The position numbers were made by a program, and so were the translations under genes. From positions 800,001-864,000 of the forward strand of contig CP009479.1 of NCBI GenBank assembly GCA_000965745.1: a stretch of 64,000 nucleotides of DNA, read 5' to 3'. Numbering within the stretch: the stretch's first letter is position 1; every line of letters starts with the position of its first letter. The stretch comes from an uncultured archaeon (lineage in GTDB: Archaea; Thermoplasmatota; Thermoplasmata; Thermoplasmatales; Thermoplasmataceae). The notes beneath the pieces are model-generated. The model saw nothing but the letters and a program-made list of their open reading frames with translations. It searched no databases and was not told where the DNA came from. Shown here one piece after another: positions 55,066 to 59,284 of the stretch.

Positions 55066-55566
55066 CTACCAGTAGTCTTTGTTGACGAAATCGTCGTAAA
55101 GCTCTGCGATGTAGTTTTTGTTGTTCAGCTGATTGTCCGCCAGAGTCTTGAGAACGCCTGAAACTTTGGCATCACTATATTCGTTCGACATCAGCTCCAG
55201 CACATTGTGAATGTCGTTAGACATCTTCATGGCCTTCAGGAGCACACTTTTCATATCATTGGCATTAACATCCGCCAAGTCCTGGGTAACCAGATGATCA
55301 AGCATTTCGAAGCTTCTGGCATCAGACGGTTCCTGCACCTCTTCAAATTCTCCTTTGTCCAGGGCATCCCTTATCATTACCAGATCTCTCTCTTCGTTTT
55401 CCAGAAGAGTCTCGAGCATCATTCTCACATGATCCACGCTGGATTCTTCATACAGTTCCCTGTACCTGTCCACCATCTTCTCCTTAAGGCCGAATGCTTT
55501 TTTCAGAAGATTTTCCCTAACTTCTCCAGATTCTTTTCCAGATATTGTCGAATTGGCTTTTGTCAC
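55066..55566 (-). CDS. Ferritin/rubrerythrin-like helical protein with degenerate metal ligands
   Basis: Two helix-pair repeats (L..A......Y..L...L.TL...E); GTG start 55566 after AGGAGG. Confidence 0.6.
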   Translation of the reverse strand: MTKANSTISGKESGEVRENLLKKAFGLKEKMVDRYRELYEESSVDHVRMMLETLLENEERDLVMIRDALDKGEFEEVQEPSDARSFEMLDHLVTQDLADVNANDMKSVLLKAMKMSNDIHNVLELMSNEYSDAKVSGVLKTLADNQLNNKNYIAELYDDFVNKDYW

Positions 55567-55724
55567 TGACTTCCTCCTAACATAAATTATAACCAATCAA
55601 GCTTATAACCTTTGCCATGCGCCTTATACAGAGGTGAACGCCTTTTAAACCAGAAAATGGAGACTGTCAATTGTTAGTTGAAATTCTGTGATTTCCAGTC
55701 TCTCGACCGCAATCATGAAACATA

Positions 55725-56925
55725 ATGAGTACATCACATTCCATGCGGATACGCCGGATCCCAGGCATATCTAGGGTCGTTATTACAACAAACCTTGATG
55801 ACTATTCCGGTGATCATCCATCCTCGCCTCTCAGGCTGGAAGATCAGCCCACAAATATCAGGTTCAGCAGTGACGGCACTCCCATACTGCACTACAGGGA
55901 CCCTATCTGTCCCAGATGCTTCTCCAGGGATGTCTCAAGGAACGGTACATACATGAGGGAAGTGCAGGGCCACAGTGTGAAGATACAGAAATACATCTGC
56001 AATGCCTGCTCCTTCTCCTTCGAGGCAAGGCCTCCGGGATACGGGTACGGAAAGCATATCCCTGAGGATCTGAGGGAAAAGACCATGAAATCTCGCGTGC
56101 TCTCATCCCTCAGGAAGGCTGCACAGATGTGCGGCATATTCCTCGGAACATCAGTTTCACACGAGTCGGTGAGGACATCTGTACCTGACATGCCTTTCCG
56201 GCATGAAAGGGAATCCTCAGGATATTTCTCATACGACGAGCAGTACGTGAAGATCAACGGCCAGAGAAGATACAGGTTCCTACTCAAGGATACTGTCACT
56301 GGTGAGTTTCATGAGGACATCCTGCTGGATCTGGGTGAGGATTCCACCACCTCATTCATCCTTGACGCACTCAGGAGATTCTCCATTGGTTCTGAGATAA
56401 CAGTGACAACAGACGCTTATCACTACGAGGACGCATTCAGGAATGTCTCCCGGCAACTTCACATAAGAGTTAGGAGGCAGAGGTGCCTCTTCCACCTCCT
56501 CAAGGACCTGAGGAAGAAGGCATATGATTCAGGCAGGAAGGATGAGCTGACTTCAGCACTGGGTCTCATAAATTACACGTTCTTCCAGACTCCTGAGAAC
56601 CTGGAGAAGCTTGGAAAAAATGCGGAGCCTGTCAAGAGGAAGGTCTCAGGAAAGTCTGAAAAGGAGGCGACATTCATTCTCCTTGGTCTTGTGAGGGATC
56701 TCTATTCCGGCGATCCTGTCATAGGTAAATTTCTGAAGCAGATAAGGAAGAACAGGAGGGAGATATTCTGGTATCTCGAAGATCGGAAGGTCAACAGAAC
56801 AAACAACGTTGCCGAGCATCATTTCCCCCAGAGATCTGAACCTCCTTAAGAGGAGGTTCAAGACCGATGATGGACTGCTCAGGACATCCTACTGGTACCA
56901 CCGGTACTCATCAACCGGAAGTTGA
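55725..56925 (+). pseudogene. DDE transposase (IS256/Mutator-like) with a +1 frameshift near the C-terminus
   Basis: Zn ribbon CPRC/CNAC, YDEQY (D), TTD (D), CLFH (CxxH), TNNVAE (E); frame stops at 56849, while the shifted frame continues LLKRRFKTDDGLLRTSYWYHRYSSTGS* to 56925. Confidence 0.8.
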
Positions 56926-56932
56926 CGACGTC
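56908..56932 (+). repeat. Inner copy of the IS right end (direct repeat of 58571-58595)
   Basis: TCATCAACCGGAAGTTGACGACGTC vs TCATCAACCAGAAGTTGACAATGTC, 22/25 identical. Confidence 0.85.
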
Positions 56933-57306
56933 CCCTTTTGAAAGAACTTGTATACTAACGAATAATTGATTAACGATGCAGGCCAGAATGCTATTAACCT
57001 GCTGCCATCAACAATCCCTACAAGAAAGAGGAGTATTGGAATTATCTGAAGAGTAATCGCCATCCACTTTATTCTAATTCCAAGAAGCCAAAGTACAGGG
57101 ATCAGGAGCAGGAAAAATGACATGAATATGTTATATCTTAATGTTGCAGCTCCATTAATTGGATCAGAGTAATACATTCGTTGAGAATAGAATGCCAAAA
57201 TAGTTGCAATTATTGATATGATTGCAATTAGATTCCATACCAGGTTGCTTCGAAAGTGGGAGCGCCTTAATCCCTTAACCTCATCTTTTTCCATTTCTAA
57301 CACCAT
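56911..57306 (-). CDS. Cargo gene 2: small 3-4 TM membrane protein
   Basis: Hydrophobic segments; ATG overlaps the upstream stop (TGATG); its stop codon lies inside the inner IRR. Confidence 0.7.
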   Translation of the reverse strand: MVLEMEKDEVKGLRRSHFRSNLVWNLIAIISIIATILAFYSQRMYYSDPINGAATLRYNIFMSFFLLLIPVLWLLGIRIKWMAITLQIIPILLFLVGIVDGSRLIAFWPASLINYSLVYKFFQKGTSSTSG

Positions 57307-58517
57307 CAAAGTATGTTTTGCGTATATTGCTCGTCGTAGTTATTTGACACATATTGGTTATAAAGGACACTTGAGGACCATGTGTCCCAACTAGCAGTAA
57401 CACCGTTCCAATATTTAATGGTGTTACTGATGTAAACATGGCCATTCCCCTGATTATTTATAGTGACAACTATGTTTGGGAAAGCCTCCCAGTATGTATA
57501 TCCTTGGAACGGAAATTGAGCATACAGTTCGATGTAATAGGATGAAGTTGCAGAAGTAGAACTATGCTGGTAACTATCCGTGATTATGGTCGGGTAAGAA
57601 TATTCCCAGTAGTAATAATCAAGAGAATAATAATTATCATTGGCTCCACTCACATAGCTTCCACCTTGTCCACTCCAAGTCACAGCCAGTGATGCAGTAG
57701 CATCCCACAAATGTATACCTGGCACTACAGTGTGATCCCATTCAGGAAGTGTTCCTGTTACGGAAGTTCCAAAATTAGAACCTCCGCCGCCACCTGGTGG
57801 GGTGGGCGCCAGTGGGGAATTAACAACGAAGTTAGTACTCTTAGCGTTAGATGAAACAATACCCTGCCCGCTCGCAGGCAAGAACTGTGGTGCGAATAAG
57901 TAGGCCATTGTGGGATCATAATTAATTGAGGCAAAGAATTGACTGAATCCTGATGAGGCAGTCTTATGCACAGTCAGAATGTTAAGGTTACCAGTTTTTG
58001 AATGTAGCAAGCTCATATATACGTAATCAATAAGATTGTCCTTTGAATGAGATATCACTGTCGCATACAAAACCCCATTCGACATATAATCAGGAATCTT
58101 GGATGAATTGTAATATGACGATTGATTCTTAAATGACTCAAATTGACGCACCTGAAATGTGGAATGAGAGTATCTAGACGTACCGTTGTTTGTCAACGTT
58201 GAACTCAAAGTCACGTTGTTTTTATCAGATAAATTGTAAGATACTATTGTGTGAACAAGATATGTTGTGCTATCATTTGAATCACCCATTGTTATCCTAT
58301 AGCTAACTTGAGCCGTCAATTGAATACCTGATGTCAGGTTTGTCAAATTGCTATTATTACCGGAGATAGCAGAGGTTACCAACGCAGGTTGAGAATTTAC
58401 GTCTGCCGTGTTTGTAATAGCCGAATTGTTGTGATACGATGTTATAATTGCAAAAGATGCACCGATCATCACTGAAGAGAGAAGAAGAGAAACCATAATT
58501 TTTATTTTATGGCTCAT
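57306..58517 (-). CDS. Cargo gene 1: secreted two-domain protein (403 aa)
   Basis: Signal-like MSHKIKIMVSLLLSSVMIGASFA, many NxS/T sequons, PTPPGGGGG linker, Tyr/Trp-rich C-terminal domain. Confidence 0.75.
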   Translation of the reverse strand: MSHKIKIMVSLLLSSVMIGASFAIITSYHNNSAITNTADVNSQPALVTSAISGNNSNLTNLTSGIQLTAQVSYRITMGDSNDSTTYLVHTIVSYNLSDKNNVTLSSTLTNNGTSRYSHSTFQVRQFESFKNQSSYYNSSKIPDYMSNGVLYATVISHSKDNLIDYVYMSLLHSKTGNLNILTVHKTASSGFSQFFASINYDPTMAYLFAPQFLPASGQGIVSSNAKSTNFVVNSPLAPTPPGGGGGSNFGTSVTGTLPEWDHTVVPGIHLWDATASLAVTWSGQGGSYVSGANDNYYSLDYYYWEYSYPTIITDSYQHSSTSATSSYYIELYAQFPFQGYTYWEAFPNIVVTINNQGNGHVYISNTIKYWNGVTASWDTWSSSVLYNQYVSNNYDEQYTQNIL

Positions 58518-58538
58518 TAAATTAATAACCAAGTTCTG

Positions 58539-58555
58539 TATATATATATATATAT
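58539..58555. repeat. (TA)8 microsatellite at the TATA position of the cargo operon
   Basis: TATATATATATATATAT, 21 nt upstream of ATG 58517 on the minus strand. Confidence 0.85.
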
Positions 58556-58639
58556 TTCTATCTTGCGTAATCATCAACCAGAAGTTGACAATGTCAGAAA
58601 ATGCAAAAATGGTTAAGAGAAGTTTCCATCAGGTCTTGC

Positions 58640-59284
58640 ATGCTGGTTTCACCATCGATTATCTCTTCAGACCTGAGGGTGTTGCAGAACCAGATTGAAG
58701 AATGCGAAAGGCATGGGGCTGCATCATTCCATCTTGATGTGATGGACGGACACTTTGTTCCCAACCTGACAATGGGCCCTGACATAGTAAAAGCAGTTAG
58801 AAAATCTACAGAACTGCCGTTAGAGGTGCATCTCATGATTGACAGGCCAGACAGATACTACACCAAGTTTGCAGAATCTGGCTCTGATATCCTCCTCATA
58901 CATTACGAATCTCCAGTCAATCTGAGGGGCCTTTTCAACAACATGAAGAATGAAGGCTTGAAGTATGGCCTCGTCATCAATCCCGGGACAGAATTCAGGG
59001 AGGTCTCTGATCTTCTCGATGGAACGGAAATTCTCCTGATAATGTCAGTGCATCCCGGGTTCTCTGGCCAGAAATTCATTGACGTGACTGACAAAATATC
59101 GGAAGCATCAGCCTTCATCAAGGACAACGGGCTGGGCACGAAGATAGAAGTGGACGGTGGAATCAACCTTGAGACTGGAAAAAAATCGGCCAAGGCCGGA
59201 GCGGATATCCTGGTGTCTGCATCCTACATATTCTCTGGAACCATAAAAGAAAGAATAGGGAGCCTTAAAAGACTCACCAGGTGA
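58640..59284 (+). CDS. rpe: Ribulose-phosphate 3-epimerase
   Basis: SPSI, H.DVMDGHFVPN, HLM, MSV.PGF.GQ.F, VDGG. Confidence 0.95.
   Translation: MLVSPSIISSDLRVLQNQIEECERHGAASFHLDVMDGHFVPNLTMGPDIVKAVRKSTELPLEVHLMIDRPDRYYTKFAESGSDILLIHYESPVNLRGLFNNMKNEGLKYGLVINPGTEFREVSDLLDGTEILLIMSVHPGFSGQKFIDVTDKISEASAFIKDNGLGTKIEVDGGINLETGKKSAKAGADILVSASYIFSGTIKERIGSLKRLTR

Follow-up and report, generated by a model that had tools for sequence, protein, structure and literature searches.

How does an insertion sequence (IS) in an archaeon come to hold a pair of passenger genes between its ends? The question is raised by a locus in the window, by which we mean the whole stretch of 64,000 nucleotides analysed here (G000:C1:800001-864000), part of a complete, 2.23-Mb genome with a guanine-plus-cytosine (GC) content of 46.4%. 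The database names of homologues of the transposase put this genome in the Thermoplasmataceae. At positions 55660-58595 an IS with its transposase gene is followed by two cargo genes and a second IS right end, and this mobile unit of 2936 bp is enclosed by one 8-bp target duplication. Our analysis indicates that the unit is probably a decayed compound transposon that was inserted as one piece. Mobilisation of genes by ISs is well documented in bacteria, where it mostly concerns resistance genes, and poorly in archaea; the locus provides a clean, datable example from an acidophilic line of archaea, with an empty site, an 8-bp rule and a cargo-end junction in a second species.

One target duplication encloses the IS and its cargo

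The family to which this IS belongs comprises two subfamilies, A and B, the latter represented in the same genome by the intact element IS-B. The ends of the unit and the duplication around it are laid out as follows.

55652..55659, no strand: left copy of the target duplication, AGAAAATG, identical to 58596-58603
55660..55681, plus strand: left inverted repeat (IRL) of subfamily A type, terminal GAGACTGTCAA, placed from alignments and a table of ends
56896..56932, plus strand: inner right end of subfamily B type, terminal 22 bp at 56911-56932, placed from alignments
58565..58595, plus strand: outer right end of B type, a 31-bp solo end, terminal 22 bp at 58574-58595, terminal GACATTGTCAA, 21/22 identical to the IS-B right end
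58596..58603, no strand: right copy of the target duplication, AGAAAATG, 8/8 identical to the left copy

A first-pass annotation had placed IRL, the two right ends, the cargo and the duplication at these same positions, all of which proved correct. The left terminus agrees with that of A-type copies in three relatives, whose alignments begin at, or no more than 2 bp from, 55660. Between the inner and outer right ends lie 1641 bp of cargo DNA, with a GC content of 38.4%, lower than in the IS (49.3%) and in the genome overall (46.4%). The annotation had further stated that AGAAAATG stands outside IRL and the outer end only, and this was borne out: the 8 bp directly 3′ of the inner end agree with it at 2/8 positions. 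Recounting by hand the complementarity to IRL gave the same values as before: the inner end agrees at 13/22 positions and the outer, the closer of the two, at 16/22. The inner and outer ends themselves form a direct repeat of about 29-31 bp (25/29 identical). With the local base composition, an 8/8 match between the duplication copies would arise by chance with p about 1.7e-5, and the number of 22-mers within one mismatch of the IS-B right end expected per genome is likewise 1.7e-5; chance does not explain the duplication and the outer end.

The family reliably makes duplications of this length. Perfect 8-bp duplications, mostly AT-rich, were found at fourteen other family copies and relics, including both full IS-B copies, two solo-end relics, an A-type copy in another genome (G017) and six copies in relatives or metagenomes.

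The insertion site is empty in congeners

The unit separates two genes that are neighbours elsewhere in the genus.

55066..55596, minus strand: left flanking gene, 166-176 amino acids, no family, directly beside rpe in congeners
58601..59284, plus strand: right flanking gene, ribulose-phosphate 3-epimerase (rpe), likely true start at 58640

In three genomes of the same genus (G001, G002 and G003) the flanking genes are divergent neighbours 65-115 bp apart, with neither the IS nor the cargo between them. When positions 55660-58603 are removed from the window, the remaining spacer aligns continuously with that of G002, the nearest of the three, across the junction. The empty site that the first-pass annotation had looked forward to is therefore present in all three relatives, and none of them carries the cargo at this locus without the IS, the finding that it had named as fatal to its proposal. 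Within the species the picture is uniform, as the unit was found at the same locus in 10/10 metagenome contigs (99.8-99.9% identity) and no presence/absence polymorphism was seen among these ten. Because the duplication lies outside the outermost ends, the site is empty in congeners and the family follows an 8-bp rule, the unit was most likely inserted as one piece.

The IS is a hybrid of two subfamilies

Chimerism was analysed in an alignment of 14 family copies. The following features of the IS bear on the result.

55725..56849, plus strand: transposase open reading frame (ORF), 374 amino acids, A-type, shortened by a frameshift; zinc-ribbon N-terminus and DDE core
56830..56925, plus strand: C-terminal tail of the transposase in the shifted frame, stop inside the inner end, C-terminus the same as in the intact IS-B protein
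56841..56842, plus strand: extra C, a 1-bp frameshift unique to the window copy in the 14-copy alignment
56876..56895, plus strand: 20-bp segment that both subfamilies conserve, in which the A/B crossover likely lies, from the 14-copy alignment

Up to position 56875 the window IS shares 72-85% nucleotide identity with the closest A-type copies (L085, L088 and a fragment in the same genome) and 50-58% with B-type copies. Over 56896-56932, by contrast, 33/37 positions are identical to IS-B as against 19-24/37 for the A-type copies, and within these last 37 bp a 3-bp indel has the B state. The intervening 20 bp are 65-95% identical to A-type and B-type copies alike, with 12 of the 13 at 85-95%. 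The IS is therefore an A/B recombinant, with an A-type left end and body and a B-type last ~37 bp. Since the 20-bp segment is conserved in both types and the reading frame runs continuously through the A/B junction, homologous recombination within this segment would be the simplest origin of the hybrid. No plain copy of the hybrid IS was found in the genome, and an exact-pattern scan of metagenome contigs for the A/B diagnostic junction returned 0 matches. Canonical A-type copies run through their own A-type right end directly into flanking DNA, with no cargo; the canonical copies of both types (14 aligned) are without passengers, and the cargo-bearing copy is a single one.

The ends of the family follow the pattern GA(G/C)AnTGTCAA, six bases, GTTGA, in which the T at position 6 is nearly invariant. 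The inner end of the window IS carries two changes, A4G and T6C, the second at the position that is T in nearly all other family ends. These results divide the earlier proposal that the whole 2936-bp unit transposed, by means of a duplicated right end of its own IS, after the inner end had decayed. The single insertion stands on the duplication and the empty site, and the inner end is indeed mutated at positions 4 and 6; the nature of the right ends was misjudged, however, since both belong to subfamily B whereas the IS body and IRL belong to subfamily A.

The reading frame of the transposase is broken by the extra C at 56841/56842, which is missing from 13/13 other aligned family copies, and the shifted frame gives back the conserved C-terminus of the family. 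Three same-species metagenome contigs that span the IS are 99.9% identical to it, with no indel detected in the IS.

The outer end resembles the relic of a second IS arm

At 21/22 positions it agrees with the right end of IS-B, and the likeness extends over about 31 bp; the outer end is thus a bona fide B-type IS end and no look-alike. The inner and outer ends also have in common a G at position 24 from the terminus that occurs in no other aligned copy; because it is shared by these two alone, it suggests that both derived from one B variant. The cargo thus lies between two B-type right ends in direct orientation, as would be expected if two copies of one IS had once flanked it. Most simply, the outer 31 bp would be the relic of a second IS arm, formerly a full copy. 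Partial IS copies and solo inverted repeats are recognised IS derivatives (PMC3129680), and relics of this kind are found elsewhere in the genome beside the intact copies.

Genome 1-1268 and 319654-320921: full IS-B copies, each with a perfect 8-bp duplication
Genome 705853-706013: IS-B solo right end, 161 bp, both copies of its 8-bp duplication intact
Genome 2109430-2109469: IS-B solo left end, 40 bp, both copies of its 8-bp duplication intact

As the 161-bp and 40-bp relics show, IS copies have been reduced to solo ends more than once in this genome. With both duplication copies intact at each, the rest of the IS must have been removed exactly up to the opposite terminus. Such relics have the look of footprints left by excision or aborted repair, for which an IS256-like family offers no ready explanation. 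The first-pass annotation had set the unit apart from classical composite transposons on the ground that so little IS sequence is repeated; with the outer 31 bp resembling the relic of a second arm, and with two further relics in the genome, this distinction cannot be upheld.

The end-cargo junction occurs in a second species

The cargo consists of two genes.

56911..57294, minus strand: cargo gene 1, 127-amino-acid protein for which several transmembrane helices are predicted; inner IS end encodes the final 7 codons and the stop
57306..58517, minus strand: cargo gene 2, a 403-amino-acid orphan protein, hydrophobic anchor or signal at the N-terminus

The congener G003, in which the insertion site is empty, holds the membrane-protein gene together with the final 150 codons of cargo gene 2 (76% nucleotide identity) at an unrelated, IS-rich locus. 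There the cargo is joined at the same nucleotide to a B-type right-end relic of ~58 bp that has the T6C change. Comparison of the source genome with G003 gave ratios of nonsynonymous to synonymous divergence (dN/dS) of 0.22/0.87 for cargo gene 1 and 0.16/0.85 for the other cargo gene, values that point to purifying selection on both. For ten chromosomal orthologues of the same two genomes dS is saturated. Set against this saturation, a cargo dS of 0.85-0.87 implies that a module of end plus cargo was shared long after the species split, and the inner end-cargo junction is older than the insertion in the window.

At the G003 locus (L070, 5000-9900) the cargo relic lies beside a truncated DDE_3 transposase, a Dam-type methyltransferase and an Ada-like gene. 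Its counterpart in the source genome, at 697500-705200, holds several ORFs that by inspection resemble transposase genes. This variable, IS-rich region may be the former home of the cargo.

Proposed history of the unit

We consider that 55660-58595 is probably a decayed compound transposon, inserted as one unit. The order of events given below, and the enzyme, are what we infer from the observed anatomy, duplication, empty site, chimerism and junction elsewhere. A native gene pair, encoding a secreted or anchored protein and a small multi-pass membrane protein, would have been bracketed by two directly oriented B-type ISs, one within the membrane-protein gene, at its 3′ end, and the other just upstream of the AT-rich promoter of the pair. 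Either before the move or after it, the promoter-side copy would have lost all but its last 31 bp, and the other would have recombined with an A-type IS within the shared 20-bp segment to give the in-frame A/B hybrid. A DDE transposase of the family would then have brought together the A-type IRL and the outer B-type end, which is intact, bypassing the inner one with its changes at positions 4 and 6, and the unit would have been inserted through an 8-bp staggered cut into the AT-rich promoter spacer between the two divergent genes. The enzyme may have been the hybrid's own protein, before the frameshift, or an intact IS-B transposase acting in trans. With the resident transposase frameshifted, only IS-B could mobilise the unit today. 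The ends of the two subfamilies may be interchangeable, and if so a wider range of DNA could be moved per transposase.

Several observations weigh against this history. The unit is known as one copy at one locus, and its movement as a unit is deduced from that single case. The duplication-flanked ends come from two subfamilies and differ at 2/11 terminal bp. The transposase resident in the unit carries a frameshift. A search for a donor locus that has the complete IS-cargo-IS arrangement found none. Finally, if the family copies out and pastes in as IS256 does, the solo-end relics require a separate explanation.

A more far-reaching extension of the proposal is conceivable, which we put forward tentatively and think doubtful. 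It holds that this Mutator-like IS family of the Thermoplasmatales can pair the ends of two diverged subfamilies and bypass a point-mutated end, that recombinant ISs and stray solo ends together act as gene-capture vehicles, and that the solo ends with both duplication copies intact arose by excision followed by one-sided, aborted gap repair. If true, it would provide an archaeal counterpart of Pack-MULE or ISEcp1-type mobilisation, and it would imply cut-and-paste transposition for a family of which the closest relatives are believed to copy out.

Among the alternatives to a decayed compound transposon, the one that fares best, although we regard it as unlikely, assembles the unit in place in two steps. 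A plain A/B hybrid IS would have inserted first and made the duplication, and the cargo would have joined it later at the right end via the short B-type ends, for example as a circle with cargo and one end, excised from an end-cargo-end structure elsewhere and integrating there. The cargo does lie between direct repeats of 29-31 bp (25/29 identical), the end-cargo junction does exist elsewhere, in G003, and the IS seems already to have recombined once within the 20-bp common segment. Assembly in place nevertheless costs one extra event and needs the same end-cargo-end structure elsewhere anyway, the homology available to it is only about 30 bp long and contains mismatches, and neither the genome nor the metagenome junction scan yielded the plain hybrid IS with which it starts.

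It is far less probable that the matching 8-mers are coincidental or the by-product of a rearrangement, with the IS on the one hand and the cargo with its solo end on the other having arrived separately, side by side. The family has a preference for AT-rich 8-mers and the target is rich in AT, and the surroundings of the G003 copy show that IS debris does accumulate. However, the duplication copies match 8/8 at the exact termini (p about 1.7e-5), deletion between them restores a spacer colinear with that of G002, and cargo coming alone would leave no transposase-type boundary on its inner side.

Least credible of all is an ISEcp1-like read-through, in which the transposase passed over its own right end and took a chance look-alike in the adjoining DNA as a surrogate. 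In its favour, the duplication flanks IRL and the distal end, and the proximal one is mutated; against it, the distal end agrees with the genuine IS-B right end at 21/22 positions within a likeness of 29-31 bp (1.7e-5 expected by chance per genome), the nearest solved fold is that of an IS256-family transposase and no IS1380 model matched. The analogy with ISEcp1 that the first-pass annotation had drawn thus falls with the identification of the outer end as no fortuitous surrogate. Gene conversion into a plain A-type IS at the site was also considered and rejected, as the outer end is B-type to its last bases and offers no homology for a right-hand crossover.

Relation to known mobile units

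The structure is an IS-bounded cargo unit with a degraded arm, a known kind that is unusual for archaea and of modest novelty. Like a compound transposon with one degraded arm, it has cargo between two IS ends of the same type, uses the outermost ends and has one target duplication around the whole. It differs in that the window has one full IS and just 31 bp left of the second arm, in that the surviving arm is an inter-subfamily recombinant, making the working ends heterologous, and in that the host is an archaeon and the cargo consists not of resistance or catabolic genes but of an orphan membrane/secreted gene pair. The sole unusual feature is the inter-subfamily hybrid, which shows recombination between two IS subfamilies within a short conserved stretch.

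Units mobilised by ISEcp1, of the IS1380 family, resemble the present one in that a proximal right end is bypassed, a distal one is used and the duplication surrounds the larger unit. ISEcp1 uses weakly similar surrogate sequences in host DNA, whereas the distal end here is a genuine IS end, and the transposase belongs to another superfamily. Transporter ISs (tIS) and mobile insertion cassettes likewise hold a transposase and unrelated passengers between the functional ends of one unit (PMC3129680). The passengers of tIS, unlike those described here, are integral to multiple copies (PMC3129680); the window has a single such copy with a vestigial internal end, and canonical copies of its IS are passenger-free. 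Nothing here overturns current understanding. The archaeal IS family is under-described and is widespread in Thermoplasmatales.

The transposase family resembles Mutator and IS256

Relatives of the transposase were found in 50/169 genomes of the order Thermoplasmatales, and elements in relatives and metagenome contigs are typically 1269 bp long. The two intact IS-B copies in the source genome are 1268 bp long and 99.8% identical to each other, and their 399-amino-acid transposase shares 45% amino acid identity with that of the window. The genome record is linearised exactly at the first base of one IS-B copy, the 8-bp duplication of which spans the end and the start of the record.

Curated sequence models (NCBIfam, Pfam) assigned the transposase to no named IS family. 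The best NCBIfam matches were ISH6, IS66, IS6 and IS1, plus a zinc ribbon of IS1/IS1595 type. Against the ISH6 model (NF041731) the IS-B protein scored 34 bits and the window protein 17 bits, neither reaching the cut-off of 240, and neither an IS256 nor an IS1380 model matched in NCBIfam or Pfam. A profile search of Protein Data Bank (PDB) sequences with the transposase gave nothing significant. An AlphaFold model of the IS-B protein (predicted local distance difference test, pLDDT, 73) had as its top PDB structural match the IS256-family transposase ISCth4, with an E-value of 2.5e-7 but a template-modelling (TM) score of only 0.36. The residues of C254-x-x-H257 are invariant or nearly so in a 22-sequence alignment and stand ~24 residues after a presumed catalytic Asp (D230), outside the range of 11-19 residues past the second catalytic Asp at which Mutator-like transposases have their C/D(2)H motif (PMC3942029).

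The family is like ISH6/IS256 (PMC3942029) in its single ORF of about 400 codons and its short terminal inverted repeats; the CxxH after the presumed second Asp and the structural top match may be further points of likeness. It is also like ISH6 in its 8-bp duplication of an AT-rich target, which in ISH6 has the consensus AANATNTT (PMC3942029). It is unlike them in scoring far under the curated cut-offs, in its N-terminal zinc ribbon of IS1/IS1595 type, in the element length of 1.27 kb rather than about 1.45 kb and in the spacing of the CxxH. The IS256/Mutator-like label given by the first-pass annotation appears to fit at fold level, to judge from the top PDB match; the curated models name no family. 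Judging from the predicted fold, 'Mutator/IS256-like' is reasonably taken to denote resemblance rather than membership. The family is probably under-annotated, because the curated IS models fail to capture it.

One further A-type copy in the genome is a 3′ fragment of 443 bp (335706-336149), 83% identical to the window IS and with its native A-type right end. No duplication was found around it, and it is uninformative on mechanism. The breaks that many metagenome contigs show about 430-510 bp inside the window IS are probably due to this fragment.

The cargo genes look like captured host genes

Distant homologues of cargo gene 2 (G018, P0081 and P0082) occupy ordinary chromosomal contexts without IS ends, and one of them is followed by a gene for a 139-amino-acid, multi-pass membrane protein. 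The latter arrangement suggests that the cargo genes are a native pair, and they look like captured host genes. The cargo gene 2 protein is rare, with 12 representatives among 1.84 billion proteins, and no relatives of the cargo protein were found in the metagenome scan. The 403-amino-acid protein received no family or fold assignment from Pfam, NCBIfam, PHROGs or its Atlas model, which had a pLDDT of 0.39 and no usable neighbour. A toxin/immunity or holin function was considered for the cargo and found no support, as nothing exceeded the cut-offs in Pfam, NCBIfam and PHROGs (the holin match reached 20 bits, against 29.2).

The last 7 codons of cargo gene 1 are IS-derived in the source genome and G003 alike. 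In the window the palindromic core of the inner end (56911-56925) supplies stop codons for two convergent ORFs, the transposase (plus strand, in the shifted frame) and the 127-amino-acid cargo gene (minus strand).

Within the species one feature varies, in the gap that separates the start of cargo gene 2 from the outer IS end.

58539..58555, no strand: (AT)8 tract upstream of cargo gene 2, length differs between populations

This (AT)n tract has 8 units in the window and 7 or 9 in the ten metagenome contigs, which are otherwise 99.8-99.9% identical, and is a hypervariable microsatellite in the presumed promoter of cargo gene 2.

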